A DNA stretch of 64,000 bases, from NCBI GenBank assembly GCA_000004985.1, contig GG738920.1; one strand, given 5' to 3'. The notes under the pieces are model-generated. The model saw only the letters and a program-made list of their open reading frames with translations, did no database searches and had not been told where the DNA came from. The translations under genes and the position numbers were made by a program. Source of the stretch: Naegleria gruberi (lineage: Eukaryota). Positions 38,015 to 64,000 of this stretch are shown here, in pieces; within the stretch, counting starts at the first letter, position 1, and the number at the start of each line of letters is the position of its first letter.

Positions 38015-38148
38015 TTTTTTATTGTTTTATTGAACAATCTTGTGAATGGTTTCCAAATAATGAAATAAAATAATGAACACAAGCAATAAATTTATTGTCA
38101 ATCAATATTTAGCAATTAAGAGTTAAGGCAACAGTAAAGTTAAAAGCG

Positions 38149-39841: not shown

Positions 39842-40923
39842 TTACCTTAATACTTTATTTGGTCTTTTTGCCCAACAAAACATTGATTCCGTACCTGACC
39901 AAGCATTCCAACCTTTATGCGTTATAACATCTCTAGCCTCATCTGCTTTCTTCCAATTCAATGAAAAGAAACGTTGCTCTTCATCCTTAATTCCAATAAA
40001 ATTGCAAACTTTCCTCAAATTAGCCAACAATCTCCATACATACAATCTTCCAGGATAACCAGCACATAATTCTGATAATATCCCCAAAGGAACAAATATA
40101 ATTCCTCTCCAGTCAAATACAAATTTTGAAAAGGTGGCGACGAAACCTTTTCCAATAGAATTGAAAGGTGCATCTTTATGATTGACCATAATTGGTGGAA
40201 TGTAATCTGAGCAATGTCCCATAGATCTGAAGAATGCGTTGAACATCAAGATTGAGCTCAGCCAAAATGATTCATCATTGGAAAATTCCAAAATCCAATT
40301 TGGCAAAACTATTCGAAACAATGTCATTGACTTTGGTATTAGTATTTGTGGAATGATAAAATACCAGAGAGAAAAGAAAAAGCATGTAATGAAGAATTGG
40401 AATCGATAAATTTGATTTTTTGTCTTTGATTGTGCTTTGATATCTGGGGTTGTTTCATTATTCGAAACTATGGATATCGATAATAATTGCACTAAACACA
40501 AAATGTAATGAATCCAATATAATAAACCAGGAAATTGACGAAAACACACACTTCCATAATAATTAAAATACCATGCCCATCTATGAACAGTTCCACAACA
40601 TGTGTTTAGTTGATTTCCAATAAAAAACAATAACTTACAATGTCAAATCTATTGGAAAGGTCAGAATATGAGACCATATATTAAACAGTGTCTGATGATA
40701 AACATATCCAGTCACTGATTGCAACACAAAGTTTTTATGTCCATAATTTCTCAATGGTTGCGAAGTAAATCCATTACCTTAAAATTAGAATAGAACCTTT
40801 CAATTCTTGAATATTGGAAAGTAACTTACTTTGCCATTTAGATAAGAGAATTGGTGCACATGTAGCCAACAACATGAACAGTGAATTTATAACCAACAAC
40901 AGTGGTATCTCATAGAGCTGCAT
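39842..40923 (-). CDS. Multi-pass membrane protein 'X' copy 1 (paralog of 44384..45264), multi-exon
   Basis: Start ATG 40921-40923 (MQLYEIPLLLVINSLFMLLATCAPILLSKWQS then GTAAGT intron). Large exon 39842..40630 with ..VHRWAWYFNYYGSVCFRQFPGLLYWIHYILCLVQLLSISIVSNNE.. and HCSDYIPPIMVNH, CAGYPGRLYVW blocks shared with copy 2. Confidence 0.5.
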
Positions 40924-41097
40924 CTTTTTTTCAGAGTTTCGAATTAAACCTACTGTGGTTTGCTGTAATTTTGCGAGTAAAAGTAAATTTCACTGCATTG
41001 TTTCCAATTACAATGCAAAAAGTCAACCTGTCGTTGTTAAATGGTTAAGCTTAATCAATCTTACTATTTCCATAAAAAGGCTCTTTCCTTGTCCATA

Positions 41098-41290
41098 CAT
41101 AACACCATGAAACCTTTAAGACGGCCAACACTTGTAACTGACAGATTAGTGAACTTTTCAAGCAGTGCATCTGTCACTGCTCATTGTATCAAATTATGAG
41201 GACTCCAACAAAATATTGAAAAAATGTCAATAACCACTTCCTTTTGTTTATGAAATTCTTCATGGCTTACAATTATTATCAATAAAGCAG
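41098..41290 (+). pseudogene. Remnant of small membrane-protein gene 'Y' (copy 1): conserved promoter/5' region and first codons, then premature stop
   Basis: 41041..41150 is about 85% identical to 43330..43440 (ggttaagcttaatcaatcttactatttccataaaaaggctctttccttgtccatacataacaccatgaaacc). The ATG-TCA-ATA homolog of Y2's start reads MSITTSFCL* and terminates after 9 codons. Confidence 0.45.
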
Positions 41291-41357
41291 TCAACAACAT
41301 GATAATACTTTTAATATCATAACACGTAATTTATTATCTAGGAAAGGTGTTATAGTC

Positions 41358-42365
41358 CTAATCATACATTATTGATTTATCAACAAGGTATGTCTGTATT
41401 TCACTATCAACAAACTCTGTAGTTCTGCCATGATTTTCCTTTTCATGGAGAATATCATTCTTTGAAATAATGTTTTCAGATTGAAGATATTCAAGACACC
41501 GATCTGTATCCCATCTCTGTTTTGAATCTTTGTGGAGCATATTTGAACTCATTTCTCGTATCTTGGTTATCACTCGTTTTTGATTTTCTGAAAATGTAGA
41601 AACTGTAAGATTCCAATCTAATATTTCTGAAATAACAATTCCCAAACAATAAATATCGGTCAAAGGCGTAATATAACCAGATCCTGTTTTTTCTTTTTCT
41701 GGGGGCATCATATTTGGAGTTCCTTAATGATTTGGTTGGATTAGTAAATTGTAAATTATGAAAACATACCTGCTTTGGAATAAACCTTGTCACCAAAAAG
41801 TTCACAAATTTGATTCTCCCTATCATAAAAGTCAAATTTCTTTGCTAGTTCAAAGTCAATTAACTTGGTAAAATCATTGTAAATAACTATATTACTTCTT
41901 TTCACATCATTGTGAATATATTTAAGCATGTGAATCTTTCCCATTTCTACCAATAATTGAACAATCATTTTCACAGCTTTTTCAAAATCAACACTAACAT
42001 CTGTCAAACATTTACCTTCAAATGACATCTCAACATAAAATGCTGAAGCTTTGACATGTATCGCGCAAAGATAGATTGTTTTTTCTTTAACTTGTCAGCA
42101 GTTAAAATGCTATTTTCATCAACTTGTTGTGAGAAATTTTCAACAAGCAAATTAGTTTATCTTCGTCTGGGTGATTTTGTGCCTCGTTGAGGATATCTGA
42201 CTCATCTTCTTGTAGTACACGTATTACATACGAACCTGTATTTGGAATTTTAAATGTAACACTTCTATCAGACATTAATTGTTTGAGTTTTTCGTTCAAT
42301 TCTTTAAAGTTTTCATTGGCTCTGACCATGTTTAATTGCACCCCTCTGTATCGATTATGAGTCAT
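41358..42365 (-). pseudogene. Degenerate protein-kinase-like gene (pseudokinase or pseudogene), split over ORFs 42102..42365, 41756..42028, 41491..41835 and 41358..41711
   Basis: Kinase subdomain VIb HNDVKRSNIV (HRD changed to HND), VII IDFELAK (DFG changed to DFE), IX DIYCLGIVISEIL. Putative glycine-loop/VAIK region degenerate (TGSYVIRVLQ). Reading frame broken several times. Confidence 0.5.
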
Positions 42366-42387
42366 AAATTGAAGCTACTAAAGAAAC

Positions 42388-43017
42388 TTACGCATTTGTC
42401 TTGGTATCTCCAAAAAGATCACTCATATTACAAAGAGAGCTGAACATCCTAATTGTTAATTCCAGGTCGCTAGGCTCTTCACAACATCCCATCAATACCC
42501 TTTCTTTGAACAATAAAGGGTGAAGACACCACCTTGCATGTTGAATTTCTATTGAGTGGCAAACTTTCTTTTCAAACTTTGGGCTTTTTGATAGTAGATT
42601 TCGAATAGAAGTTTCAGAAGCATTTTCTTCTGCAACTTTGCTTAGTAAACTTTCAAATTCCTTTGCCAAAGGGGAAATAACATCGTTGTGGTTAGATACA
42701 TCGCTGGGGGTTATACGAAACAATGACAGTTTGCAAAGGAATCTGTTTTTAGACTCACACCATGCTGGAATCTGAAACGGTTTACTTTTATAGTATCCAG
42801 AAGAAATGTACATTCTCAAAAGGTGCGATTCATTTGCTTCTAGTGCAGACAAGTCATTTTGTATTTCTGCTTCAATACTGTTGTTAAAATTTGGATCGGA
42901 AGCAACTCTCTTTTTTGTTGGCGAATGTGGTGGTTCGTCCAATACTTGTTTTTTTGGTGGTTTCACTCTCAGTTTTTGTTTTCCTGTTGTTTTAAGGCTA
43001 TTTAATGAAGTGGGCAT
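42388..43017 (-). CDS. Hypothetical protein (209 aa), possibly the N-terminal regulatory part of the adjacent kinase-like gene
   Basis: Intact ORF on the same strand immediately upstream of the kinase-like ORFs; no domain recognised. Confidence 0.3.
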   Translation of the reverse strand: MPTSLNSLKTTGKQKLRVKPPKKQVLDEPPHSPTKKRVASDPNFNNSIEAEIQNDLSALEANESHLLRMYISSGYYKSKPFQIPAWCESKNRFLCKLSLFRITPSDVSNHNDVISPLAKEFESLLSKVAEENASETSIRNLLSKSPKFEKKVCHSIEIQHARWCLHPLLFKERVLMGCCEEPSDLELTIRMFSSLCNMSDLFGDTKTNA

Positions 43018-43494
43018 TTTTTTTAAACATTAAAGCTGTAGTGAAAAAGGCGCCAACCATGAGGTTACTAACATTTCTCTTTATTTTACACAATTGACAT
43101 TCGATATTCAATAAATAGAACGAGCAAAAGAAAGTTTGAACTCTGAATCGTAACAATTACACAATGTAAAGTATTAGAGTTAAACTATTTCAAATATTGA
43201 GTAATGATATCCTTAATTATCATTTATTATGCGAATTAATCTACACGTGTTGTAGCATAAACTCAAATAACGAATGGAATAAAACAGACTAAAAGGAAAT
43301 TCACTGCAAAAAATCGACATGTCATTAATACGGTTAAGCTTGATCATTCTTAATATTTCCATAAAAAGGTTCTTTCCTTGTCTATACATAACACCATGAA
43401 ACCTTTAAAACCGCCAACACTTGTAACTGACACGTTTGTGCATCTGTCACTGCTCATTGTATCAAATGAATTACTCAAGCAAAATATTGAAAAA

Positions 43495-44001
43495 ATGTCA
43501 ATAATCAAAACCTTTCCTGCCTTGTTTATGAAATTCTTCATGGCTTACACTTGGTTTGAACCTCTTTTCTGTGAAATATTCCTCGGCTTGTTGTTATTCT
43601 TCTTTCCAACAAATGAATTTGTGATCAATTCCTTTGTTCACACACCACTTTTCAATGCCATGAAAGAATCACTTCCTATTCATGATAGTTTGGCCTTTCT
43701 GATGAGATTTATTTCAATGTTATTGACCACGTTTGGATGTTTGCACTTTTTAATACTGCTAACATGCAACTATCATAGAAAAACAATTGCCCCACAGAAG
43801 AAGTGGTCTCAAAATGTTCTCTTCAATGTACTCATTGCAGTGTTATTGATTGGTGATTGTTTTCATGTGTTGTGTGTTTTAACATTGGAAGGTTCTTTGA
43901 AATCTCAAATTGTTTATCAACTTCCATTAACTATTTACTGTATAATAGTGAGGGCGATGTTTATTATCATGAATCAATTGAAATTATTGAATGATTTTTA
44001 A
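43495..44001 (+). CDS. Small multi-pass membrane protein 'Y' copy 2 (about 168 aa)
   Basis: MSIIKTFPALFMKFFMAYTWFEPLFCEIFLGLLLFFFPTNEFVINSFVHTPLFNAMKESLPIHDSLAFLMRFISMLLT.. is about 85% identical to 45514..46029. The longer ORF from 43378 includes likely 5'-UTR. Confidence 0.5.
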   Translation: MSIIKTFPALFMKFFMAYTWFEPLFCEIFLGLLLFFFPTNEFVINSFVHTPLFNAMKESLPIHDSLAFLMRFISMLLTTFGCLHFLILLTCNYHRKTIAPQKKWSQNVLFNVLIAVLLIGDCFHVLCVLTLEGSLKSQIVYQLPLTIYCIIVRAMFIIMNQLKLLNDF

Positions 44002-44383
44002 CAATTTATTCAATTATTGAATAAGTCTAAGGTGAAACTGTTTAATCTGTTTAATATTAAATTAAGTTTTGTATTGTCCATTAAGTATATTTAATAAGGA
44101 CGAAGGGCGAATGCAATTTCATTGTTTGAATGAACAATAAAGTGGGCATTTCAATCTTTGAAATTCTTATTGTTTACAATTGCCCATTCAAAAATTGGTT
44201 TTGTAATTGACCAAGAATTCCATCCCTGTCGGTTAATTAAAAATTTTGCCTTGTCAACTTGTTTCCAATTTAATGAAAAAAAGTTTGATTTTCATCTTCA
44301 ATTCCAATAAAATTACAAATTCTCCTCAAATTTGCTAACAATCTCCTATTCGAAAGTTGTCAAAAATTTGGAAATGAAATCAC

Positions 44384-45264
44384 TTACCAAACATACAATC
44401 TACCAGGATATCCAGCACATAATTCGGATAATATTCCAAGTGGTAAGAATATTAAAACTTTCCATTCGAAAGCTAATTGTAAAAATGCTGAAAATCCTTT
44501 TCCAATTGAGGTAAATGGTAAATCCACATGTTTAACCATAATTGGTGGAATATAATCGGAACAATGAGCTATTGATCGTATGGATGCATTGAGTATCAAG
44601 AAGCAGTTCAGTAAAATTGGATCATTTGAAATTCGAATTGGAAAAATTCGAAACATGATGAACGGAAGAATGAAATACCAAAACGAAAAGGCAAAGTATG
44701 TAATAAGGAACTGTAATAAATAGAAATTAAACTTTTGATAGCGGTAGATTATTAGAGAGGAATCTGTTTGCTCTTTAGTTGGTTTTTCATTATTCGAAAC
44801 TATGGATATCGATAATAATTGCACTAAACACAACATGTAATGAATCCAATATAATAAACCAGGAAATTGAGGAAACCACACACTTCCATAATAATTAAAA
44901 TACCATGCCCATCTATGAACAGTTACACAAAACACGTGTTTAGTTGAATTTCCAATAAAAAAACAATAACTTACAATGTCAAATCTATTGGAAAGGTCAG
45001 AATATGAGACCATATATTAAACAGTGTCTGATGATAGACATATCCAGTCACTGATTGCAACACAAAGTTTTTATGACCATAATTTCTCAATGGTTGCGAA
45101 GTAAATCCATTACCTATGAAAAAATTAACAATTATTCCAGTTTCGCGAAACCCCACAAAAAACTTACTTTGCCACTTGGAAATAAGAACTGGTGCACATG
45201 TCGATGACAACACGAACAATGCATTCCCAACAAACAACCAGGGAACGTTCTCTGTAAGTTGCAT
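44384..45264 (-). CDS. Multi-pass membrane protein 'X' copy 2, 2+ exons
   Basis: Start ATG 45262-45264 (MQLTENVPWLFVGNALFVLSSTCAPVLISKWQSK), intron ~45105-45165, body exon 44384..45013 with VHRWAWYFNYYGSVWFPQFPGLLYWIHYMLCLVQLLSISIVSNNE and HCSDYIPPIMVKH, CAGYPGRLYVW. Confidence 0.5.
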
Positions 45265-45513
45265 CTTTTTTTTGTTTCGTTTAATTTTCTAAACTTTTTT
45301 CCACTTGATAAAGTTGAAAGTGCACTGGCGCATTACTGATCCACCAAATTTCAATGAATATATCATGTTTCCCTTCTCTCTAGATGGTTCTTTCCATTTA
45401 CATAGGACCTCTTCGTACCGCAATTTAAAGATTAGTACTGACACGTACTTTCATAGAAATATTCAAAGTGTCAACATCATCCAACAGATGTCATCCACTG
45501 CTGAGTATTTCAC

Positions 45514-46029
45514 ATGAAAAAAATGACAGCAAACCATTCCATCCTAGCACTATTTATGAAAGTGTTCATTACCTACATGTGGTTTGAACCAATTTTCTGT
45601 GAAATTGTACTCGGCTTGTTGTTATTCTTCTTTCCAACGAATGAATTTGTGATTAATTCATTTGTTCACACACCACTCTTCAATGCCATGAAAGAATCAC
45701 TTCCTATTCATGATAGTTTGGCCTTTCTGATGAGATTTATTTCAATGTTATTAACTATTTTTGGAGGTTTACATTTACTGTTAATGGTTGCTTGTAATTA
45801 TCATCAAAGAGATGTGGAATCTCAGAATAAGTGGTCTAAGAATGTTCTCTTCAATGCAATGGTGGCCATTCTGTTGGTTGGTGATTGTTTTCATGTGTTG
45901 TGTGTTTTAACATTGGACGGTTCTTTGAAATCTCAAATTGTTTATCAACTTCCATTAACTATTTACTGTATAATAGTGAGGGGCATGTTTATTATCATGA
46001 ATCAATTCAAAATGTTGAATGATTTTTAG
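45514..46029 (+). CDS. Small multi-pass membrane protein 'Y' copy 3 (171 aa), divergently paired with X copy 2
   Basis: MKKMTANHSILALFMKVFITYMWFEPIFCEIVLGLLLFFFPTNEFVINSFVHTPLFNAMKESLPIHDSLAFLMRFISMLLTIFGG...; four hydrophobic segments. Confidence 0.5.
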   Translation: MKKMTANHSILALFMKVFITYMWFEPIFCEIVLGLLLFFFPTNEFVINSFVHTPLFNAMKESLPIHDSLAFLMRFISMLLTIFGGLHLLLMVACNYHQRDVESQNKWSKNVLFNAMVAILLVGDCFHVLCVLTLDGSLKSQIVYQLPLTIYCIIVRGMFIIMNQFKMLNDF

Positions 46030-48554: not shown

Positions 48555-48887
48555 TTAAATGACGTACAATATAGTTGGAACAAATGAAGGATTAGGAGGT
48601 AAAACCTTTGGTTTTTCTTCATTAGATGTTGTTGTATTCTGTTGTTCCAATGTTGTTGTTGTTGTTGTTGCTGATGATGATGAATTCAAAGCCTTCTTCT
48701 TCTTCTGTTCTTCCTGTTTTACTTTAATATATGGTTTCAAATCTTCATCATCTCCAAATTCCTTCAATTCTTCTTCCGTTAATTCTAATTCTTCATTCAA
48801 TAATTCTTCATCATTCATTTCCGAAACCTTTTTCACTACTGGTTTGGCATCTTTTGATGCTGATGTTAATGTGGATGATGATATCAT
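48555..48887 (-). CDS. Small acidic S/T-rich protein (110 aa), unknown
   Basis: Intact ORF; EELLNEELELTEEELKEF acidic helix, poly-T tract. Confidence 0.3.
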   Translation of the reverse strand: MISSSTLTSASKDAKPVVKKVSEMNDEELLNEELELTEEELKEFGDDEDLKPYIKVKQEEQKKKKALNSSSSATTTTTTLEQQNTTTSNEEKPKVLPPNPSFVPTILYVI

Positions 48888-49091: not shown

Positions 49092-51461
49092 ATGTTTGCA
49101 GGAGATCACGGTCGGAATATTCTCCAACTAGTCGAAGATGACGACGATCAGGTCATTAATTTATCAGACTTTGAATTTAACTTGAATTTACAAACACAAA
49201 TACAAGAATTGGAACCCATTCGTGAATTTTCCAAACAAATTTCATACATTTCGCACCAACAACAACAAGAAGCCTTTTCATTCCAAGATCATCAAGATCA
49301 TGATCACCAATTTAACGTTAAATTATGTCAAGATGATTGGTTCATGATTCTCGATTACATTCCATTCCCTGATTTTTGTAAATTTTCACTTGTTTGTTCA
49401 TCATTTGCAGAATTATTAACTTTTAATAGGAGACATTTGGTGATGAGAGGAATTTTGAAGGATTTTCCATCACTATTAAAAGATCATCATTTTACCACTG
49501 TAGAATCATTGGGAATGTTGGCAAGTGAAAGATCTCCGAGTGATGATCTCTCCAATTTTCAAAAATCATTATTCTCTGATATGATTTATTTCCTTATAGA
49601 GAAGAAGAGATATAAACAAAATTTATGGAAATTCATTGAAATGGATAAAATTAGAGAAATGGATGAGAGATTGTTCATTTTACCATTTAGATCATCAATG
49701 ATCATTAACAGTTTTTATGATTTTTTGGATATTCCACAAGAATTGTTGAATTGTAAAAAATTTATTATGAAATTTTTTGAAATTATTCCAAAGGCTTGTT
49801 CAAAATTTTTCATATTTTTAAATGAAAATTTGAAAAATGATGAGGAAATTGTCAAATTGGCTGTTTCTAATAATGGATGGTTGATTAAATTTGTTAAAAA
49901 TCCAAATAAGGAAATTGTTAATTTGGCATTTCAATCTAAATATAGATTTGACATTTCTCCCACTTATAATCAATATAGAAAAGTATTTGAAAAATATAAT
50001 GATAGTTTAATTCACTTATCAGATTCATATTATGAATTATTAGATGAAAAATCAATTGTTTCTGATTATAGAAAATCAAAAAAAACAAATGATAATTCCT
50101 TATTTAGAAAATATATACAATTAGATTCTAAATATGGATTTAAAAATATTCAATTTCTATTATTATTTGCCTATTTTGAACAATCACCTGAATTGAAAGA
50201 TGTTCTTTTATATTACTATTATAATACTAATAATACTACTAAAAATAGAAAACATTACTTATATGTCGATGATTTAATTACTGACATGATGTGTTTTCCA
50301 GACATGTTTGAACCATCACTTTCCAATATAATTCAAGTTCCTACTCAAATATTAAATTGTAAAACTAGAGAAATAACCATCTCACAAATATTAAATAGAA
50401 TATTAAATGATAATTTTACATTTAATACTATATTAAATAATGTTAATATGAAATTTACAAAATCAAGTATTGAATATTTAAGAAAAAGATTAATTCATCA
50501 ATCCAAAGTTACACCACTCTTTACACGTCTCTATTTTACAAAATATTTTGAAATTAGAAATGAAAATGATGAAAATAATGAAATTAGGAATGAAATTAGG
50601 AATGAAAATGATGAAAATGAGAGAATTAAATTATGGAATGAAATTTCCAAATGTAGAAAATTAAATTTAAAAATGCTCAAATATTATCCAAATTATTATT
50701 CACAATTGAGTGATGAATTTAAGAATGAAAAGGAATTTAAAGCAATTGCAATGGAAAATTTAAAGTGCAATTTGAAATATTTTAATGTGGAAAATAATGA
50801 TGATGAATTTGTAATGGCACTTTCTGGTAATTTTAAAAGAAATATTAAAATATTGAAAAGTAAATATGGAAAGGAAAATATTAAGGAAAGAATTAAACGA
50901 ATTTTCCAACAAGAAAATGGAAGAATTCGTAAAGAATGGTTAAATTGGCCACGTGTCTATGATTTATATCAATTCCATCTTTGTTATTTATATACTGATA
51001 TGGAACATGTATTTACCACTGAAGATCAAATTGAAATGATTGATCATGGAACACCTGCAATTGTTAAGAAAATTGCCATAACCAATGATGAAAGAATTTT
51101 AGAAAGAATTCGAATGAAGAATTTATTGGACATTTGGTTTTCAACCAATTCAACTAGTTTCATGGTAGTAACATTTAGATATTGTTTGAGTTATAAATCA
51201 CATCAAGCTGTTTATAGAGCTTTGGATAGAACTTTTATTACATTACAAAAATCTGATCAATTTTTATCAAAGGTTTTACAAGTGGTTCCTAAATTTGTAA
51301 AGGTATTTTTCACAGTTAGAAAATCATATTATTATGATACACGTACTGTTATTGATTTCCCATTTGAATTAATTAGAGAACTTGCATTGGAAAATCAGAG
51401 AATTGTACATTATTTACCTAGAAATATTCAAAAGAGATTGAAAAATCCATTCTCCCTTTAA
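49092..51461 (+). CDS. F-box-like N-terminus plus DUF4116-repeat protein (789 aa); its 3' two-thirds lie inside the left arm of the inverted duplication
   Basis: DDWFMILDYIPFPDFCKFSLVCSSFAELL (F-box-like); NENLKNDEEIVKLAVSNNGWLIKFVKNPNKEIVNLAF (DUF4116-type repeat); NDENNEIRNEIRNENDENER low-complexity insert. Confidence 0.6.
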   Translation: MFAGDHGRNILQLVEDDDDQVINLSDFEFNLNLQTQIQELEPIREFSKQISYISHQQQQEAFSFQDHQDHDHQFNVKLCQDDWFMILDYIPFPDFCKFSLVCSSFAELLTFNRRHLVMRGILKDFPSLLKDHHFTTVESLGMLASERSPSDDLSNFQKSLFSDMIYFLIEKKRYKQNLWKFIEMDKIREMDERLFILPFRSSMIINSFYDFLDIPQELLNCKKFIMKFFEIIPKACSKFFIFLNENLKNDEEIVKLAVSNNGWLIKFVKNPNKEIVNLAFQSKYRFDISPTYNQYRKVFEKYNDSLIHLSDSYYELLDEKSIVSDYRKSKKTNDNSLFRKYIQLDSKYGFKNIQFLLLFAYFEQSPELKDVLLYYYYNTNNTTKNRKHYLYVDDLITDMMCFPDMFEPSLSNIIQVPTQILNCKTREITISQILNRILNDNFTFNTILNNVNMKFTKSSIEYLRKRLIHQSKVTPLFTRLYFTKYFEIRNENDENNEIRNEIRNENDENERIKLWNEISKCRKLNLKMLKYYPNYYSQLSDEFKNEKEFKAIAMENLKCNLKYFNVENNDDEFVMALSGNFKRNIKILKSKYGKENIKERIKRIFQQENGRIRKEWLNWPRVYDLYQFHLCYLYTDMEHVFTTEDQIEMIDHGTPAIVKKIAITNDERILERIRMKNLLDIWFSTNSTSFMVVTFRYCLSYKSHQAVYRALDRTFITLQKSDQFLSKVLQVVPKFVKVFFTVRKSYYYDTRTVIDFPFELIRELALENQRIVHYLPRNIQKRLKNPFSL

Positions 51462-51545
51462 CCAAATATTAAAAAATATATTTATTATTTTCATCATTTA
51501 TTGCCATATTTGAAAATTCAATTTAAAAGGTAAAAAAAAAAACAA

Positions 51546-52577
51546 TCAAGGTATTCCTTGTATTAAATCTTGAAGTATTTCATGACTTGTTGAATCTAAT
51601 TTACAATTGGTTCTATTTTGTCCAGACCACAATTGAGAAAAGTCGAAATTTAATTCTCTCTCCAAATGATTTCTCAGTGGTGTGAAATAATTGGTTGATT
51701 TTGGAAAGGGTGGTGCATATTCTGAAATAGTTCCAATTTCTTTCATTGCTCTATTTACAATGGAACGAGCAGGTCTTCCTGTGAATATATTAGTCACTGC
51801 AGTTGGTAATGAAACATCTGTCAATAACTGTTTATATTTAACAGTTGATTCCTGACATGTTAAAAATACAGTTCCACATTGAACACCACTAGCTCCCAAT
51901 TGAAATGCTGCTGTTACTGTCTGTGCATCAACAATTCCACCAGCAGCCACAACAGGTACCTTCACTTTCTTTACAATTTGTGGTAGGAGTGAAAATAATC
52001 CCATTTGAGTGGAAATATCATTTGATAAAAACATTCCTCTATGTCCACCTGCTTCTATTCCCTGTGCAATTATAATATCCACTCCATTCTCTTCCAAATA
52101 AAGTGCTTCTTCAACTGTTGTAGCACTTGACATGATTCTAATATTCATCCTTTTCAATTCCTTTACAATTTCTTTAGAAGGTAAACCAAAATGAAAGCTA
52201 ACTACAATTGGTTTAAATTCATTCAATACAGGAATAATATTTTCATTGAAAGGTAATCTGGAAATTGAAGAAGAAATTTTAAATTCCACATTAAATTCTT
52301 GATAATATTTTTCAATTATTTGGCGCCATTGATTTTCATTTTTAGTATTATTGGGATTTTCATGACAAAAGAAATTTAAATTGAATGAATGATCGGTGGC
52401 TAATTTAATCTTTTTAATTTCTCTTCTCATTTCTTCAATATCTAACGTGGCACATGGTAATGAACCTAATGCTCCAAATTTGGAAACTTGAATGGCGAGT
52501 GTGGAGTTTTGAGCACCAGCCATTGGAGCTTGAATAATCGGATATTTGACTTTGAGCAATCTCTTGATTGGATTCAT
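51546..52577 (-). CDS. Nitronate monooxygenase (2-nitropropane dioxygenase-like, FMN-dependent), copy 1
   Basis: YPIIQAPMAGAQNSTLAIQVSKFGALGSL N-terminal NMO signature; GIEAGGHRG; VVAAGGIVD glycine-rich FMN-phosphate motif. 343 aa. Confidence 0.8.
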   Translation of the reverse strand: MNPIKRLLKVKYPIIQAPMAGAQNSTLAIQVSKFGALGSLPCATLDIEEMRREIKKIKLATDHSFNLNFFCHENPNNTKNENQWRQIIEKYYQEFNVEFKISSSISRLPFNENIIPVLNEFKPIVVSFHFGLPSKEIVKELKRMNIRIMSSATTVEEALYLEENGVDIIIAQGIEAGGHRGMFLSNDISTQMGLFSLLPQIVKKVKVPVVAAGGIVDAQTVTAAFQLGASGVQCGTVFLTCQESTVKYKQLLTDVSLPTAVTNIFTGRPARSIVNRAMKEIGTISEYAPPFPKSTNYFTPLRNHLERELNFDFSQLWSGQNRTNCKLDSTSHEILQDLIQGIP

Positions 52578-52921
52578 TTTTTTTGATTATGAGAATGTAT
52601 TAATTTCGAATTGTCCACCCGATTTTGTAAACTTTGTAAATCTTTACAATAATATTATGCAATATTGATAAGGATTCTTTTTTTGAAAATTCCGATTTGT
52701 GAACCAATAAAACAAGCCTTGAAAATGCGCCATGTTTTTTTTACATTAAAATCAACTAGTTGGTGGTGAGAATCATCGTCATACAACAAATTGACATTAC
52801 GCAACTCCTTACCACATAATGTTCTTTTCAGAGCCTTGTTGTTGTGTGATCAAAAAAGCCTCGACAGAATAAAAGCCTTTGATGATGGAATTTTTTAATT
52901 TAAATTTAAATTTAAAAAAAA

Positions 52922-53629
52922 ATGTTCACCAAGACTCTCCGTTCCGGACTCATCACCAAGAAGAATATTATCGGTTTTGCTACTCAACAAGTTAGAAGCA
53001 AACATCAATTACCAACATTGGACTATGCTGTCGAACAAGGTATTCATCCAGTTATTACTGCTCGTCAATTAGATTTCCACTACAATAAGCATCACAAGAC
53101 CTATGTTGATAAGCTTAACGCATTGGTTGAAGGTACTTCATTTGAATCTCAACCTTTGGATGCTATAATTCAAAAAGTAGCCTATGATAGTGACCCAAAG
53201 AGTGTTGCCATCTTCAACAATGCTGCTCAACATTTTAATCACTCCTTCTATTGGAAATCATTGGTTCCAGGTGGTGATAAGATTGAAAACTATCCACTCA
53301 TTAAACAAGAAATTGAAAAGCAATTCGGTTCCGTTGATGCTTTCAAACAACAATTCACTGAAAAGGCTACCACTTTGTTCGGTTCTGGTTGGACTTGGTT
53401 AGTTTTGGATGGTACTTCATTGAGAATTTGGAATGGTTCTAATGCTCAAACTCCAATTGCTGAAAATTTAATTCCATTGCTCACTTGTGATGTTTGGGAA
53501 CATGCTTATTATTTGGATCATCAAAATAGAAGACCAGATTATTTGAAGACTTTCTGGGAAGCAGTTAACTGGGGATTCGTCAACAAGTCACTCCAATTTG
53601 CTGTTGAACAATCTAGTATTAAATTGTAA
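52922..53629 (+). CDS. SOD2: Mn/Fe superoxide dismutase with N-terminal presequence (mitochondrial MnSOD-like), copy 1
   Basis: LPTLDYAVEQGIHPVITARQLDFHYNKHHKTYV and DVWEHAYYLDHQNRRPDY (D-x-W-E-H-A-Y-Y signature); 235 aa with basic, Ser/Thr-rich leader MFTKTLRSGLITKK. Confidence 0.9.
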   Translation: MFTKTLRSGLITKKNIIGFATQQVRSKHQLPTLDYAVEQGIHPVITARQLDFHYNKHHKTYVDKLNALVEGTSFESQPLDAIIQKVAYDSDPKSVAIFNNAAQHFNHSFYWKSLVPGGDKIENYPLIKQEIEKQFGSVDAFKQQFTEKATTLFGSGWTWLVLDGTSLRIWNGSNAQTPIAENLIPLLTCDVWEHAYYLDHQNRRPDYLKTFWEAVNWGFVNKSLQFAVEQSSIKL

Positions 53630-53885
53630 TTTAATTACTATTACTACACTATATAGTAAATAATAATATAAAAAGGATTTAATTTATTAAGCCTAACTTG
53701 TTTGAATTTTTACTACATTCTTCCACTGATCAATTGAATGGTTAGTCAATTAATTCCGAAATAATAATCAAAGCTCATAATAATATTCCTAAATCAATTA
53801 TTCAGTAATCAAAAGAATAAATTTATATTTGAAATTTTAAAGCTGTTTACAGGTCGGAGTAAAATTTATTGGTTGCTAAGGATAG

Positions 53886-55178
<1,293 letters not shown>

Positions 55179-55239
55179 CTGAGATGCTAATAATAAATAA
55201 TGATATTGTAATTTAAATAATAATATTTAAAAAAATAAA

Positions 55240-55938
55240 TTATAAATGTGGAGGTGATTGAGGAGGTGAAATTCTTGAAATATTTAAAATAGAAGTATCT
55301 TCTAATTCTTCTTCATCAATATATTGAATAATATATTGAGTATTAGGTGATGATAATAAACCTTGATTTAGTAAATTTGACATATTTCCATTATTAGAAT
55401 TATTATTAGAACCATTATTATTTGAACTATTATTATTATTATGATTAGGTATATATATGGAAGTATTCATATCATGATAATGGATTGGATTAAATTGATT
55501 TATAAAATCATCATCACTTGAACTATCATATTCATCATCATCATCATCATCTTGATCTTCTAACATGACATCATCTTCACTATCTTGTTGAAAATTTCCA
55601 TTTATAGTAGTATTATTATTATTAACAAAATGATTTTGTTGTTGTTGTTGTTGATGTTGTAAAAATTTAATATTTGCCAATAAATCAGGTGGAGTATCCA
55701 ATGCTATTTTAATATTATATATTTTTGTTTGATATTCCTTTTCGAGACGATCCAATACTTCACCATCTAGTATATTATTATTATTATTTTGGAAAGTTAT
55801 TAAATTATTATTATTATTATTATTATTTGTATTATTTAAAATATTGTTATGATGAGAATGTTGATGTGATTGCATTTCCATACATTTAATTGGAATATCC
55901 AATGGAAATATTAATGTCATATTATTAAACAAGTCCAT
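55240..55938 (-). CDS. N-rich/acidic low-complexity protein (232 aa), unknown
   Basis: Intact ORF dominated by poly-N, poly-Q and poly-D tracts. Confidence 0.35.
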   Translation of the reverse strand: MDLFNNMTLIFPLDIPIKCMEMQSHQHSHHNNILNNTNNNNNNNNLITFQNNNNNILDGEVLDRLEKEYQTKIYNIKIALDTPPDLLANIKFLQHQQQQQQNHFVNNNNTTINGNFQQDSEDDVMLEDQDDDDDDEYDSSSDDDFINQFNPIHYHDMNTSIYIPNHNNNNSSNNNGSNNNSNNGNMSNLLNQGLLSSPNTQYIIQYIDEEELEDTSILNISRISPPQSPPHL

Positions 55939-56077
55939 TTTAATGATAATGTTGATGATGATTATAATAATATTAAGGTATGCTTAGAGTAAATATAATG
56001 TTGATGATTAAGATGATGGTAAAATGAATAATATTAAGGTTATTGTTGTTGTTGATGATTGTGAATATAATTTTTTA

Positions 56078-57046
56078 CTATTTCTTTTTATTGTTTTGTT
56101 GTTTTCCAATTTTTGGCGCCAACAAGTGAAATTCCCTCTCAAGATCCTTTTTAATAATTTTAAATTTGGCATCGAGTTGATTCCACACATTATCATACCA
56201 TTCCTGTTCTTTTTCAATATCATTATTAAAAGACATGATATATTCATAATGTGAATTAGCCTCTTCAAAATTATAAACAAATCCAAATTTGAGAATTTGA
56301 ATGGCAAATATGAGAATTTTCATAGAGTGAAACATTGATTTTAATCCAACTCTTAAATCATGTTCAACACATAATTTCTTTTTAGTTTTAATATATGAAT
56401 TTGATGATTTTCTACTGAATGGTGATCTGAATGATGATTTTTCAATTCCTGTTTTAATATTTGTAATGAAATATTTTTCATTTTCAATTAAAATACAATT
56501 TTCAATTCTTTCTCTATTTTTAATTTCATTCAAATTATTATTATCATTATTATTATTATTATTACTATTATTATTACTATAATAGGAAAGTGATGCAATT
56601 TCAAATAAACTTTGATCTAGAAAATATTTCAATTCAAATTCAAATTGAATTTTTTTGTAAATATTAATATCTAATAAATCAGATCTAAAACTGATACAAT
56701 TTTCATTTCTATTTGGAATTGAATCTTGTTGAATAATTTCCTTTTGAGATTCTAATAGAATTTTATCATTTTCAACTTCAAACCATTTCAATTTATCTAT
56801 TTTTGGAAGAGTGAAATCATTTTGAATAATCATAAATAAATCATAATCTGAATTTTCATCATGACAATTGTAGAGTCTACTTCCGACCAAATATAAATTA
56901 ATAATGGAATTGAGTGGGAAATTTAATTCATGACAAATGAATTCTATCAGTTGATTTTTAGAGGTGAATTTATTTCCAAGCACTGCTTGAAACTGATCAA
57001 CACTAGTCACATTACTTGATGTATTCATCATCATCATGGTTGACAA
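56078..57046 (-). CDS. Nucleotidyltransferase-fold protein (Pol-beta superfamily; Cid1/non-canonical poly(A) polymerase-like motif), 322 aa
   Basis: LYLVGSRLYNCHDENSDYDLFMI fits hG[GS]-x9-13-D-h-[DE]-h of minimal NTases (compare Cid1 FGSFVSGLYLPTSDIDLVV). Poly-N tract mid-protein. Lies at the centre of the inverted-repeat spacer. Confidence 0.4.
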   Translation of the reverse strand: MSTMMMMNTSSNVTSVDQFQAVLGNKFTSKNQLIEFICHELNFPLNSIINLYLVGSRLYNCHDENSDYDLFMIIQNDFTLPKIDKLKWFEVENDKILLESQKEIIQQDSIPNRNENCISFRSDLLDINIYKKIQFEFELKYFLDQSLFEIASLSYYSNNNSNNNNNNDNNNLNEIKNRERIENCILIENEKYFITNIKTGIEKSSFRSPFSRKSSNSYIKTKKKLCVEHDLRVGLKSMFHSMKILIFAIQILKFGFVYNFEEANSHYEYIMSFNNDIEKEQEWYDNVWNQLDAKFKIIKKDLEREFHLLAPKIGKQQNNKKK

Positions 57047-57207
57047 ATGGATAATGAGTTGTTGTGTAATTTTTTCTGAAATAATAAATCGTCATGTATT
57101 TCAAAATTGCATCACAGAGTAATCAATTTTAAAATAATTAAATAATCAAATTCATTCCGATAAAGATCAATCAAGTTAAAGAGAATTTTTAATAAGTTAG
57201 AAATAAT

Positions 57208-58241
57208 TTAGAGTTCACCCTTGGCAGCCAAAGAACATTTCTTAGCTTGTTCAAGGTAAGCCTTTTGAGCAGCTTCAACATTTTCCTTCTTACCAGCCCA
57301 AGTTCTAATAGTAGAATCTTGCAAAGCTCTACCATAAGAGTATGAGATAGCCCAAGGCTTTGGAGCATTAACCTTATTGATGGCATTCAAAGTTTCAACA
57401 GCTTGTTGTTCTGATTGACCACCAGACAAGAACATAATACCTCTAACAGCAGGTGGGACAGTGGAAGTCAAAGCATCAATAGTGTATTCAGCAATCTTCT
57501 TATCATCTTCAGCCTTAGTTGGAGAATTGTTACCTGGCAAGACCATGTTAGGCTTTAAAATAATTCTATTCAAGTTAACATTGTGTTGAATCAAAGCTTG
57601 GAAAACAGAAGCCAAAACTCTCTTGGTAACATTCAAAGAAGTTTCAATATTGTGTGATCCTTCCATAACCAAAATTTCTGGTTCAACAATAGGAACCAAA
57701 CCATTTTGTTGACAAATAGCAGCATATCTAGCCAAAGTTTCAGCATTTTGAGCAACACAGAGTTGAGATGGCAATCCATTATCAGAGACCTTATAAACAG
57801 CTCTCCACTTGGCAAATCTAGCACCTCTAGCATAGTACTTTTGAATTCTCTTTTCCAAATCATCCAAACCTTGAGTGGCAGTTTCACCATCAGTGCCAGG
57901 CAATTCCTTAACACCCAAATCGAGTTTAATACCTGGAACGACACCACTTTCAGTCAACAATTCAGCAAAGGCCTTACCACTGAGAGTAGATTGGAACAAG
58001 GTTTCTTCATACAAAATAACACCAGAAATGAATTGAGTGTATTCCTTTGGTGCAGTGAAGAGCAATTCTCTGTAAGCTTGACGATTAGCTTCAATATTTT
58101 CCAATTGAATCTTTTCGAAACGCTTGCCAATGGTAGAAGTAGATTCATCAGCAGCCAAGAGACCCTTTCCTCTAGCAACCATCATTTCGACAGTCTTGTC
58201 CAATTCAGCACCGAATTTTCCGCAGATATCAATGTGAGCCA
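57208..58241 (-). CDS. FBA: Fructose-bisphosphate aldolase, class I (Schiff-base type), about 344 aa
   Basis: Start ATG at 58239-58241 (MAHIDICGKFGAELDKTVEMMVARGKGLLAADESTSTIGKRFEKI...). Conserved LLFTAP, GIKLDLG, ILKPNMV (Schiff-base Lys region), LSGGQS, and C-terminal ISYSYGRALQ. The 390-aa ORF includes an upstream in-frame extension unlikely to be coding. Confidence 0.9.
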
Positions 58242-59000
58242 TTTGTTGTATGTTGTTGTGTTGGTTTTTTTTGATTTTTGTGTTTGAAAAATAAGCCACG
58301 CTCTCTCGGAAATGAAGCTTAATTTTGAAAGATGGTACCAGCAGCAAGCTTGTAAAGATCTCTCTGCAGCAATCACACAAGAGAACGAATTTCTAACCAA
58401 AATAAAGCCTATCGCATTCGATTATGGTAAAGTTGGAGGAGACTAAAAAGTTCCCAACCAATCTGCTGGTTAAAATTAATCGCGCCTTTTGATTGGTGTA
58501 AATAATGGTGAAAATTTTAAAAATGTTAGGTCTATCAAATCGAGAAGAAACAACGAATAAGTAAAATTGTCAAGAAATGAATAAGACTATTCGATTTATC
58601 AGGCACAGTTACCACTCATAGTTATTATCTATTAGTGTTTAAAAGTGAAATTACTATTACAATATATAAATACAAATTGACTGAATTGAAGAGTAAATAA
58701 GCTAATCTACTGTGAACGTTGAGATTTTCATTGTAACGAGGTACTCACCTTGAGTTATCTTTCCAACTTGGTTAGATTTTGTTTTCATCTATTATGTCTA
58801 CAAGATATTTTACATCAATTCTCAAAAACATTAGAAACTTTTCGAGTCTTTTACTCTCAATACAATCCATACAACGATCAAATGACTGGGCAACGTATTC
58901 AATTGGCAAACTCTCTTTAGTACTCTATGCTATGGAAACTTTTCTTGATTTCTCTTCATTGGGACCAGATATGGTCAAACTCTTTTATAGCCCCAATTAA

Positions 59001-60182
<1,182 letters not shown>

Positions 60183-60437
60183 CTATCCTTAGCAACCAAT
60201 AAATTTTACTCCGACCTGTAAACAGCTTTAAAATTTCAAATATAAATTTATTCTTTTGATTACTGAATAATTGATTTAGGAATATTATTATGAGCTTTGA
60301 TTATTTCGGAATTAATTGACTAACCATTCAATTGATCAGTGGAAGAATGTAGTAAAAATTCAAACAAGTTAGGCTCATCTAATAAATTAAATCCTTTTTA
60401 TATTATTATTTACTATAGTGTAGTAATAGTAATTAAA

Positions 60438-61145
60438 TTACAATTTAATACTAGATTGTTCAACAGCAAATTGGAGTGACTTGTTGACGAATCCCCAGTT
60501 AACTGCTTCCCAGAAAGTCTTCAAATAATCTGGTCTTCTATTTTGATGATCCAAATAATAAGCATGTTCCCAAACATCACAAGTGAGCAATGGAATTAAA
60601 TTTTCAGCAATTGGAGTTTGAGCATTAGAACCATTCCAAATTCTCAATGAAGTACCATCCAAAACTAACCAAGTCCAACCAGAACCGAACAAAGTGGTAG
60701 CCTTTTCAGTGAATTGTTGTTTGAAAGCATCAACGGAACCGAATTGCTTTTCAATTTCTTGTTTAATGAGTGGATAGTTTTCAATCTTATCACCACCTGG
60801 AACCAATGATTTCCAATAGAAGGAGTGATTAAAATGTTGAGCAGCATTGTTGAAGATGGCAACACTCTTTGGGTCACTATCATAGGCTACTTTTTGAATA
60901 ATAGCATCCAAAGGTTGAGATTCAAATGAAGTACCTTCAACCAATGCGTTAAGCTTATCAACATAGGTCTTGTGATGCTTATTGTAGTGGAAATCTAATT
61001 GACGAGCAGTAATAACTGGATGAATACCTTGTTCGACAGCATAGTCCAATGTTGGTAATTGATGTTTGCTTCTAACTTGTTGAGTAGCAAAACCGATAAT
61101 ATTCTTCTTGGTGATGAGTCCGGAACGGAGAGTCTTGGTGAACAT
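60438..61145 (-). CDS. SOD2: Mn/Fe superoxide dismutase, copy 2 (protein identical to copy 1)
   Basis: Identical 235-aa translation to 52922..53629. Confidence 0.9.
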   Translation of the reverse strand: MFTKTLRSGLITKKNIIGFATQQVRSKHQLPTLDYAVEQGIHPVITARQLDFHYNKHHKTYVDKLNALVEGTSFESQPLDAIIQKVAYDSDPKSVAIFNNAAQHFNHSFYWKSLVPGGDKIENYPLIKQEIEKQFGSVDAFKQQFTEKATTLFGSGWTWLVLDGTSLRIWNGSNAQTPIAENLIPLLTCDVWEHAYYLDHQNRRPDYLKTFWEAVNWGFVNKSLQFAVEQSSIKL

Positions 61146-61489
61146 TTTTTTTTAAATTTAAATTTAAATTAAAAAATTCCATCATCAAAGGCTTTTATTC
61201 TGTCGAGGCTTTTTTGATCACACAACAACAAGGCTCTGAAAAGAACATTATGTGGTAAGGAGTTGCGTAATGTCAATTTGTTGTATGACGATGATTCTCA
61301 CCACCAACTAGTTGATTTTAATGTAAAAAAAACATGGCGCATTTTCAAGGCTTGTTTTATTGGTTCACAAATCGGAATTTTCAAAAAAAGAATCCTTATC
61401 AATATTGCATAATATTATTGTAAAGATTTACAAAGTTTACAAAATCGGGTGGACAATTCGAAATTAATACATTCTCATAATCAAAAAAA

Positions 61490-62521
61490 ATGAATCCAAT
61501 CAAGAGATTGCTCAAAGTCAAATATCCGATTATTCAAGCTCCAATGGCTGGTGCTCAAAACTCCACACTCGCCATTCAAGTTTCCAAATTTGGAGCATTA
61601 GGTTCATTACCATGTGCCACGTTAGATATTGAAGAAATGAGAAGAGAAATTAAAAAGATTAAATTAGCCACCGATCATTCATTCAATTTAAATTTCTTTT
61701 GTCATGAAAATCCCAATAATACTAAAAATGAAAATCAATGGCGCCAAATAATTGAAAAATATTATCAAGAATTTAATGTGGAATTTAAAATTTCTTCTTC
61801 AATTTCCAGATTACCTTTCAATGAAAATATTATTCCTGTATTGAATGAATTTAAACCAATTGTAGTTAGCTTTCATTTTGGTTTACCTTCTAAAGAAATT
61901 GTAAAGGAATTGAAAAGGATGAATATTAGAATCATGTCAAGTGCTACAACAGTTGAAGAAGCACTTTATTTGGAAGAAAATGGAGTGGATATTATAATTG
62001 CACAGGGAATAGAAGCAGGTGGACATAGAGGAATGTTTTTATCAAATGATATTTCCACTCAAATGGGATTATTTTCACTCCTACCACAAATTGTAAAGAA
62101 AGTGAAGGTACCTGTTGTGGCTGCTGGTGGAATTGTTGATGCACAGACAGTAACAGCAGCATTTCAATTGGGAGCTAGTGGTGTTCAATGTGGAACTGTT
62201 TTTTTAACATGTCAGGAATCAACTGTGAAATATAAAAAGTTATTGACAGATGTTTCATTACCAACTGCAGTGACTAATATATTCACAGGAAGACCTGCTC
62301 GTTCCATTGTAAATAGAGCAATGAAAGAAATTGGAACTATTTCAGAATATGCACCACCCTTTCCAAAATCAACCAATTATTTCACACCACTGAGAAATCA
62401 TTTGGAGAGAGAATTAAATTTCGACTTTTCTCAATTGTGGTCTGGACAAAATAGAACCAATTGTAAATTAGATTCAACAAGTCATGAAATTCTTCAAGAT
62501 TTAATACAAGGAATACCTTGA
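61490..62521 (+). CDS. Nitronate monooxygenase, copy 2 (one substitution Q->K relative to copy 1)
   Basis: 343-aa translation identical to 51546..52577 except KYKQLLTD -> KYKKLLTD. Confidence 0.8.
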   Translation: MNPIKRLLKVKYPIIQAPMAGAQNSTLAIQVSKFGALGSLPCATLDIEEMRREIKKIKLATDHSFNLNFFCHENPNNTKNENQWRQIIEKYYQEFNVEFKISSSISRLPFNENIIPVLNEFKPIVVSFHFGLPSKEIVKELKRMNIRIMSSATTVEEALYLEENGVDIIIAQGIEAGGHRGMFLSNDISTQMGLFSLLPQIVKKVKVPVVAAGGIVDAQTVTAAFQLGASGVQCGTVFLTCQESTVKYKKLLTDVSLPTAVTNIFTGRPARSIVNRAMKEIGTISEYAPPFPKSTNYFTPLRNHLERELNFDFSQLWSGQNRTNCKLDSTSHEILQDLIQGIP

Positions 62522-62623
62522 TTGATTTTTTTTTTACCTTTTAAATTGAATTTTCAAATATGGCAATAAATGATGAAAATAATAAATATATTTTTTAATA
62601 TTTTTAAAGGGAGAATGGATTTT

Positions 62624-64000
62624 TCAATCTCTTTTGAATATTTCTAGGTAAATAATGTACAATTCTTGATTTTCCAATGCAAGTTCTCTAATTAATTCAA
62701 ATGGGAAATCAATAACAGTACGTGTATCATAATAATATGATTTTCTAACTGTGAAAAATACCTTTACAAATTTAGGAACCACTTGTAAAACCTTTGATAA
62801 AAATTGATCAGATTTTTGTAATGTAATAAAAGTTCTATCCAAAGCTCTATAAACAGCTTGATGTGATTTATAACTCAAACAATATCTAAATGTTACTACC
62901 ATGAAACTAGTTGAATTGGTTGAAAACCAAATGTCCAATAAATTCTTCATTCGAATTCTTTCTAAAATTCTTTCATCATTGGTTATGGCAATTTTCTTAA
63001 CAATTGCAGGTGTTCCATGATCAATCATTTCAATTTGATCTTGAATGGTAAATACATGTTCCATATCAGTATATAAATAACAAAGATGGAATTGATATAA
63101 ATCATAGACACGTGGCCAATTTAACCATTCTTTACGAATTCTTCCATTTTCTTGTTGGAAAATTCGTTTAATTCTTTCCTTAATATTTTCCTTTCCATAT
63201 TTACTTTTCAATATTTTAATATTTCTTTTAAAATTACCAGAAAGTGCCATTACAAATTCATCGTCATTATTTTCCACATTAAAATATTTCAAATTGCATT
63301 TTAAATTTTCCATTGCAATTGCTTTAAATTCCTTTTCATTCTTAAATTCATCACTCAATTGTGAATAATAATTTGGATAATATTTGAGCATTTTTAAATT
63401 TAATTTTCTACCTTTGGAAATTTCATTCCATAATTTAATTCTCTCATTTTCATCATTTTCATTCCTAATTTCATTCCTAATTTCATCATTTTCATTTCTA
63501 GGTTCAAAATATTTTGTAAAATAGAGACGTGTAAAGAGTGGTGTAACTTTGGATTGATGAATTAATCTTTTTCTTAAATATTCAATACTTGATTTTGTAA
63601 ATTTCATATTAACATTATTTAATATAGTATTAAATGTAAAATTATCATTTAATATTCTATTTAATATTTGTGAGATGGTTATTTCTCTAGTTTTACAATT
63701 TAATATTTGAGTAGGAACTTGAATTATATTGGAAAGTGATGGTTCAAACATGTCTGGAAAACACATCATGTCAGTAATTAAATCATCGACATATAAGTAA
63801 TGTTTTCTATTTTTAGTAGTATTATTAGTATTATAATAGTAATATAAAAGAACATCTTTCAATTCAGGTGATGTTCAAAATAGGCAAATAATAATAGAAA
63901 TTGAATATTTTTAAATCCACATTTGGAATCTAATTGTATATATTTTCTAAATAAGGAATTATCATTTGTTTTTTTTGATTTTCTATAATCAGAAACAATT
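62624..64000 (-). pseudogene. Right-arm copy of the F-box-like/DUF4116 gene 3' portion, carrying two 1-bp deletions (frameshifts), an indel in the NDEN/IRNE repeat and substitutions; partial at window end
   Basis: 412-aa ORF matches residues ~378-775 of the 789-aa protein, but gaaaatcaGagaattg (left) is gaaaatcaagaattg (right), changing the C-terminus to ..ENQELYIIYLEIFKRD*. ttgaacaAtcacctg is ttgaacatcacctg near 63880, breaking the upstream frame. C->G (SKCRK to SKGRK) and TTEDQ to TIQDQ substitutions. Confidence 0.55.

Follow-up and report, generated by a model that had tools for sequence, protein, structure and literature searches.

What kind of event leaves the same block of genes standing twice, in opposite orientations, on either side of a short unique segment? 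The question is raised by the right-hand end of a 64,000-nucleotide stretch of Naegleria gruberi DNA (contig GG738920.1 of assembly GCA_000004985.1; the whole stretch is called the window below). An initial annotation, made from the letters alone, described a large inverted segmental duplication with one breakpoint inside the gene for GAPDH. The duplication is there and GAPDH is cut, but this description is incomplete, as the same junction also truncates a second gene, a conserved PH/C2-like gene. Because of this second truncation, and because the remainder of the gene does not occur in the window, we read the locus as an inversion-type rearrangement rather than a plain duplication. The account that we tentatively favor, with somewhat less than even confidence, is that the NEG-M lineage of N. 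gruberi underwent a genuine small inversion, with inverted duplicates remaining at its ends through a staggered-break or chromatid-break route.

The inverted repeat and its novel junction

A repeat search, blastn, and global MAFFT alignment all recover the two arms as reverse complements of each other, and place the previously annotated coordinates within 1-4 nt. Aligned nucleotide by nucleotide, a comparison that the initial annotation had suggested, the arms are 99.09% identical over 4196 columns (bit score 7518, E = 0), with 16 mismatches and seven indel events of 1, 9, 1, 2, 2, 4, and 3 bp. They form the sole repeat of more than 90% identity within the window; the remaining repeats are 74-88% identical. 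The parts of the structure are as follows.

50054-54245 (no strand): left arm, visible part, 4192 nt; its outer limit is the window edge acting on the right arm, not biology
54245/54246 (no strand): novel junction, called J, blunt; GAPDH from codon 215 onward is joined to the interior of the PH/C2-like gene, with no bases shared at the boundary
54246-59822 (no strand): unique spacer, 5577 bp, with the 5' part of the PH/C2-like gene, a poly-N gene, a nucleotidyltransferase-domain gene, aldolase, and GAPDH codons 1-214
54247-55178 (minus strand): truncated 5' part of the PH/C2-like gene; exon to 54743, 152-nt intron 54742-54591, exon 54590-54247
59822/59823 (no strand): inner boundary of the right arm; ancestral continuity within the intact GAPDH, not a breakpoint in the right copy
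59823-64000 (no strand): right arm, visible part, 4178 nt; the window end cuts this arm off

Exact-sequence look-ups map the genes of the window to one 218,836-bp scaffold of the N. gruberi NEG-M reference, a Sanger draft whose annotation holds both repeat copies. Runs of N occur in the window at 15553, 15562, and 38219-38268. The interval 38269-64000 is one gap-free contig, and therefore at least one read spans J.

Two genes are broken at this one point. GAPDH is cut between codons 214 and 215, in keeping with the earlier description of a start-less fragment, and codons 215-333 with the stop remain in the left arm. From the opposite direction, the PH/C2-like reading frame enters out-of-frame GAPDH sequence at J and reaches a stop after 9 codons, at 54217. 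There is no similarity between the two sequences joined here. An exhaustive HMMER scan identified the ortholog of the interrupted gene in N. fowleri (P0141; full model P0148 = FDP41_008159, 1206 aa) at 75% identity, as well as two further metagenomic homologs (P0142, and P0147 on contig L006). The homologs align with the window product through a stretch of 14 residue letters and then run on as "T(I/M/L)(T/N)PI(W/F)NE..." for hundreds of residues, and in both blastn and tblastx the similarity that L006 and L007 share with the window stops exactly at 54246/54247. About 950 codons of the PH/C2-like gene are missing at J. Pfam gave no C2 match on the truncated tail, and the truncation is seen instead through the orthologs. 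Neither the missing part nor its downstream neighbors have a match anywhere in positions 1-64000. A search of the N. gruberi proteome with the missing part also gave no match, a weak negative, as the query's own source (P0141/P0148) was not returned either. The disruption of a second, conserved gene is new relative to the initial annotation. The intron of this gene has a peculiarity of its own: 54592-54737 is AT-rich, of low complexity, and partly self-complementary (78-79%, self-BLAST).

The inner boundary of the right arm is ancestral, because GAPDH is intact there, its pairing with aldolase is conserved, and a wild-strain contig is continuous across it. The divergent pair, with aldolase on the minus strand and GAPDH on the plus strand, is also found in N. 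lovaniensis and Willaertia magna, and position 59822/59823 lies within an uninterrupted contig of a wild N. gruberi-like strain (98.2% identical). At the other end of the spacer, the N. fowleri gene upstream of the PH/C2 ortholog matches the poly-N open reading frame (ORF) at 55615-55893, and therefore the PH/C2 end of the spacer is in ancestral order. Gene order is conserved as local pairs, the poly-N gene followed by the PH/C2 gene in one case and aldolase/GAPDH in the other. Comparison with related species, from which a single-copy ancestral arrangement had been sought, thus identifies the right inner junction as the ancestral one, while the flanks share too little synteny with N. lovaniensis or N. 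fowleri to polarize the orientation of the middle segment. At the left outer boundary the sequence is continuous.

Several observations on relatives stand beside these results. The N. fowleri genes FDP41_008135 (GAPDH) and FDP41_008159 (PH/C2) are 24 locus tags from each other on one 552-kb contig; only three genes separate GAPDH from PH/C2 in N. gruberi, so this interval has been remodeled between the two species. Environmental metagenome ERR1078381 (PRJEB11402) contains three contigs that are 97.9-98.6% identical to the N. gruberi scaffold, pointing to a close wild relative of NEG-M in public metagenome data. The contigs of this metagenome cover other parts of the window and the ancestral GAPDH only, not J. 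The wild-strain GAPDH contig (L009, matching window 58767-60112) follows the window collinearly as far as codon ~311; the final 76 bp (1347-1422) are unrelated and have no match in the window, and may be a chimeric contig end, an intron, or another GAPDH rearrangement.

Arm genes and the divergence between copies

Pfam domains in this region comprise DUF4116/F-box, nitronate monooxygenase (NMO), Fe/Mn superoxide dismutase (SOD), GAPDH, class-I aldolase, and PH, in agreement with the gene content first read from the arms (F-box/DUF4116, NMO, SOD, and GAPDH). The F-box gene had been described as the 3' two-thirds of a gene in each arm; it is present in both, but the left gene is complete, and its 3' 60% lies in the visible repeat. 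The genes are listed here.

49092-51461 (plus strand): F-box/DUF4116 gene NAEGRDRAFT_75074, intact, 789 aa; the visible repeat does not include its 5' third
51546-52577 (minus strand): NMO, left copy, NAEGRDRAFT_75075, Q250 (Pfam and annotation)
52922-53629 (plus strand): Fe/Mn-SOD, left copy, NAEGRDRAFT_81995 (Pfam and annotation)
53886-54245 (minus strand): start-less GAPDH fragment, codons 215-333 and stop, identical to the functional copy
55240-55938 (minus strand): poly-N-rich ORF; its N. fowleri ortholog lies upstream of the PH/C2 gene
56078-57046 (minus strand): nucleotidyltransferase-domain ORF in the spacer (Pfam)
57208-58242 (minus strand): class-I fructose-bisphosphate aldolase NAEGRDRAFT_56383, in a divergent pair with GAPDH as in N. 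lovaniensis and Willaertia
59181-60182 (plus strand): intact GAPDH, spanning the boundary of spacer and right arm; 100% identical to N. gruberi XP_002669989.1
60438-61145 (minus strand): Fe/Mn-SOD, right copy, with a protein identical to the left copy and its own accession pair
61490-62521 (plus strand): NMO, right copy, NAEGRDRAFT_75083, K250 (annotation)
62606-64000 (minus strand): F-box/DUF4116 gene, right copy, degenerate; annotated only as the 255-aa model NAEGRDRAFT_75084

The complete genes and the F-box gene differ between the arms in distinct ways. The SOD copies are separated by one synonymous difference and the NMO copies by Q250K and four synonymous differences, so that at the protein level SOD is identical and NMO carries one change, as had been read earlier. 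Among the six differing codons of NMO and SOD, five synonymous changes thus stand against one nonsynonymous change, where random change would be ~25% synonymous (P about 0.005). This ratio points to purifying selection on the complete arm genes and to two distinct biological sequences in the organism. The right F-box copy carries the two 1-bp deletions noticed earlier, opposite 50182 and 51398; both shift the frame and both lie outside homopolymer runs. The same copy has a 9-bp in-frame deletion and five altered codons vs three silent changes. Sequencing error as the origin of the arm differences is ruled out by the 5:1 synonymous excess together with the indels outside homopolymer runs.

Substitutions are distributed unevenly along the arms, with 15 in the outer 2.04 kb and one in the inner 2.15 kb, and a change-point at ~52090 (permutation P = 0.002). 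The last difference between the arms is at 53760-53762, and the last 483 bp before J, including the GAPDH fragment, are identical. Overall substitution divergence is 0.38%, vs 0.5-0.8% mismatches between the window and the wild N. gruberi-like strain.

These comparisons bear on how the initial annotation had interpreted the arms, namely as an evolved duplication or allelic haplotypes and as hotspots for gene conversion that double the dosage of stress genes. The mark of purifying selection bears out the view that this is not a trivial self-hit, and the allelic option is apt for a heterozygous diploid with 0.38% divergence; "duplication" by itself is an incomplete description. Gene conversion is suggested indirectly, by the change-point at ~52090. 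The proposed significance of dosage and stress genes finds no support in these data and remains speculation.

Origin of the structure

In the inversion that we favor, the ancestral order would have run from the flank through a block of F-box, NMO, SOD, and the 3' third of GAPDH to the 5' two-thirds of GAPDH and aldolase, and from aldolase through the nucleotidyltransferase gene, the poly-N gene, and the 5' part of the PH/C2 gene to the 3' part of the latter and the sequence beyond it. One break would have fallen inside the PH/C2 gene. The second would have been staggered over 4.2 to about 5.4 kb, with one end in the F-box gene or slightly upstream of it and the other at GAPDH codon 214/215. 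By fill-in and end-joining, the 5.6-kb middle would then have been inverted and the staggered block placed on both sides of it in opposite orientations, which converts A-B-C-D to A-B-rc(C)-rc(B)-D, where rc is the reverse complement. Such an event would put both arms on one chromosome and would retain at least one intact copy each of GAPDH, SOD, and NMO, with SOD and NMO doubled. At the left arm, a dead GAPDH 3' fragment would be fused to a beheaded PH/C2 gene, and the missing PH/C2 3' part would be expected just outside the right arm, beyond the window. Later, the right F-box copy would have decayed, and the inner 2.1 kb of the arms may have been homogenized by gene conversion.

Several features of the locus accord with this sequence of events. 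A local rearrangement is favored over a random ligation chimera because, on the probable ancestral map of a ~41-Mb genome, the sequences that meet at J are only 5.6 kb from each other and in inverted orientation. Constraint on NMO and SOD alongside decay of the right F-box copy would be explained by the inversion, the latter being a redundant or truncated duplicate. The absence of the PH/C2 remainder from positions 1-64000 fits the predicted placement beyond the right arm, although this is consistency and not a test. In Drosophila, 17 of 29 inversions are accompanied by inverted duplications of unique flanking sequence (PMC1885836). We also considered whether an inverted arm copy had simply been inserted into the PH/C2 gene and rejected this, as the remainder of the gene is found neither at the outer edge of the left arm nor elsewhere in the window.

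Other observations weigh against the inversion with a staggered break. The 0.38% divergence between the arms, at wild-strain level (0.5-0.8%), is equally expected of two alleles. The dead GAPDH fragment has not drifted at all, as the last 483 bp are free of differences, and at ~52090 divergence falls by a factor of 15 (P = 0.002). Together these two features require gene conversion as an extra assumption, whereas they would be natural for haplotypes entering an identical region; haplotype mosaicism explains them as well as gene conversion does. Taken as a clock for the event, the divergence of the outer block would mean that a conserved gene has stood broken for a long while. At 4.2 kb or more, the arms are also longer than the ~1.9-kb maximum reported for D. 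yakuba (PMC1885836). The outer end of the right arm lies beyond the window, as the predicted reciprocal junction would, and the structure is known from the assembly sequence. Finally, the proteome search described above returned no N. gruberi protein for the missing PH/C2 part, with the weakness already noted for that negative.

A doubtful but serious alternative is a simple 5.6-kb inversion that is heterozygous in NEG-M, with breaks in GAPDH and PH/C2 on one homolog and the ancestral order on the other. Here J would be real, and the assembler would have entered the middle segment through J on homolog 1 and left it through the intact GAPDH of homolog 2, so that the arms would be alleles and no chromosome would carry a duplication. 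This account makes J local and inverted without the need for a chimeric clone, places the arm divergence at the allelic level (0.38% vs 0.5-0.8%), and suits a genus described as mainly heterozygous diploid, with heterozygosity reported for N. gruberi (PMC9928731). If the haplotypes become identical there, the near-identity of the inner 2.1 kb beside a collapsed spacer would be natural. The extent of the right arm also fits: the 110-aa gene at 48555-48887, just left of the left arm, has a single accession and forms a one-member cluster, and since it is single-copy the right arm (or the scaffold) should stop within about 1.2 kb beyond the window end, as expected if a second haplotype dead-ends. 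The EFC identifiers in the annotation number plus-strand genes first and minus-strand genes after them; the plus-strand genes beyond the right NMO copy and the minus-strand genes upstream of ~21 kb together number 36, which fits a position of the window at either end or in the middle of the scaffold. A heterozygous inversion also has its costs. One allele each of GAPDH and the conserved PH/C2 gene must be destroyed, a null F-box allele with two independent frameshifts is required, and the assembler must separate the arms at 0.55% difference, collapse everything else, and pick this particular path. Moreover, the GAPDH cluster contains no GAPDH 5' fragment or reciprocal chimera, though such a fragment could be missed.

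It is unlikely that the structure is purely an assembly artifact, in which the haplotypes of a single-copy, uninverted locus were assembled apart and a chimeric clone or read made J and folded them together. In favor of an artifact, the sequence comes from a Sanger draft of a heterozygous organism, and the divergence is at the allelic level. Between J and the last arm difference there are 483 bp, less than the length of one Sanger read, and a contig specific to one haplotype would be expected to end there. J also rests on a single assembly: two JGI (Joint Genome Institute) metagenome scans with spacer-side k-mers gave no independent assembly of J, a homology search with the PH gene gave the reference model only, and we found no mention of these locus tags in the literature. 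Against an artifact, J lies inside a gap-free contig with no similarity across it that could cause a false overlap, and a contig must have ended inside the PH/C2 gene by coincidence. Random ligation would join any genomic sites, whereas the sites joined here are 5.6 kb apart and inverted. In addition, the mate pairs of three library sizes in JGI Sanger assemblies should have contradicted a false orientation.

A more elaborate possibility, for which we see only a slim chance, is a single-chromosome palindrome that doubles a mitochondrial-type Fe/Mn-SOD and NMO, is partly homogenized by conversion, and expresses a truncated PH protein. That product would consist of the PH domain and half of a C2-like module, and would be ended and polyadenylated via the captured GAPDH 3' end. 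Were it true, a heterolobosean would have gained both an altered gene dosage and a new gene product from an inversion-coupled duplication.

Least probable is a fold-back inverted duplication with distal loss (breakage-fusion-bridge), in which the PH/C2 break end primed inside GAPDH, copied the chromosome back, and lost the PH/C2 3' part: a novel junction and inverted copies beside a short unique spacer are classic fold-back geometry, and neither the window nor the (unreliable) proteome search yielded the PH/C2 3' part, but the whole proximal flank should then be mirrored, whereas the block is bounded (at most about 5.4 kb) and the 110-aa gene and other left-flank genes have single accessions and form one-member clusters. 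The single-copy status of the left-flank genes in the annotation likewise removes a giant palindrome, and terminal inverted repeats of a transposon are rejected since Pfam gives no transposase in the arms or spacer and the window holds no further arm copies.

Gene models, neighboring features, and known systems

Structures of this kind are already known, and this one is seen in a draft assembly; what it offers most concretely is a warning about doubtful gene models and copy numbers. Chief among these is NAEGRDRAFT_81996, a 347-aa model with Pfam PH and Gp_dh_C domains that we rebuilt exactly from the window sequence. It depends on the following element.

54261-54291 (minus strand): 31-nt pseudo-intron of NAEGRDRAFT_81996, which fuses the PH gene in frame to the GAPDH fragment

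Because this "intron" removes residues that are conserved in the orthologs (a motif of 12 letters), NAEGRDRAFT_81996 is an annotation artifact, a spurious PH::GAPDH chimera produced in model building. Under any explanation of the locus, the PH::GAPDH fusion and the fragmentary F-box model are doubtful entries of the N. gruberi reference. The reference annotation also lists one SOD sequence under two accession pairs and NMO as two entries, which are possibly false gene duplicates. Such models can mislead gene-family counts and surveys of domain architecture. Should the inversion prove real, it would be a clean and very young non-animal example of an inversion that duplicates its own breakpoint flank, useful for understanding the origin of such rearrangements in a protist whose sexual and ploidy cycle is poorly understood.

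Elsewhere in the window, a hairpin with 80-nt arms (96% complementary) and a 27-nt loop lies within 38148-38455, directly after the sole assembly gap (50 N, 38219-38268). The pre-gap segment 38148-38210 is 76% complementary to 38300-38362, so that the gap seems to fall within a repeated hairpin, or an element resembling a miniature inverted-repeat transposable element (MITE), and may be due to it. The two lone N calls at 15553 and 15562, 9 bp apart with clean sequence around them, may be heterozygous or low-quality positions of the Sanger consensus. Old tandem duplications of 74-88% identity occupy 39951-46029 (44781-45272 vs 40448-40931, and 45553-46028 vs 43525-44000) and include paralogous membrane-protein ORFs at 43378-44001 and 45514-46029. 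A 213-aa ORF on the minus strand at 3924-4565 has its exact product in Logan and ENA assemblies of a metagenome, whereas the NCBI N. gruberi proteome lacks this sequence; the gene was probably left unannotated or was modeled differently.

Besides the fold-back case, the structure can be set beside three known systems. Haplotigs and false duplications in drafts of heterozygous diploids normally appear as separate scaffolds, or as direct copies parted by N gaps. The Naegleria arms share with them ~99% identity, divergence at the allelic level, a heterozygous Sanger draft as the source, and a second copy of limited extent; unlike them, the copies here are inverted and lie in one gap-free contig, with a junction that truncates two genes 5.6 kb apart. 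Ampliconic palindromes of the human X and Y chromosomes have large, gene-bearing arms that are >99.9% identical and are maintained by arm-to-arm gene conversion. Kilobase-scale inverted arms, a unique spacer, and intact, selected genes are common to both, and the near-identical block beside the spacer is compatible with conversion, whereas the Naegleria arms are about 100-fold shorter and 99.1% identical, and one of their genes is decaying. Comparison with N. lovaniensis and Willaertia magna gave no sign that the structure is conserved or recurrent in other Naegleria.

The third comparison is with the breakpoint duplications of Drosophila inversions (Ranz et al. 2007, PMC1885836). The Drosophila arms have a median length of 321 bp and a maximum of ~1.9 kb, vs at least 4.2 kb here, and are ~88% identical, vs 99% here; the inverted segment in Naegleria is only 5.6 kb, and neither the reciprocal junction nor an inversion relative to an outgroup has been observed in it. 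In both systems, gene-bearing sequence that was ancestrally unique occurs twice, in inverted orientation, around a unique segment, and one apparently ancestral boundary is paired with one novel, blunt junction at which partial gene copies lie, while one of the duplicates degenerates.

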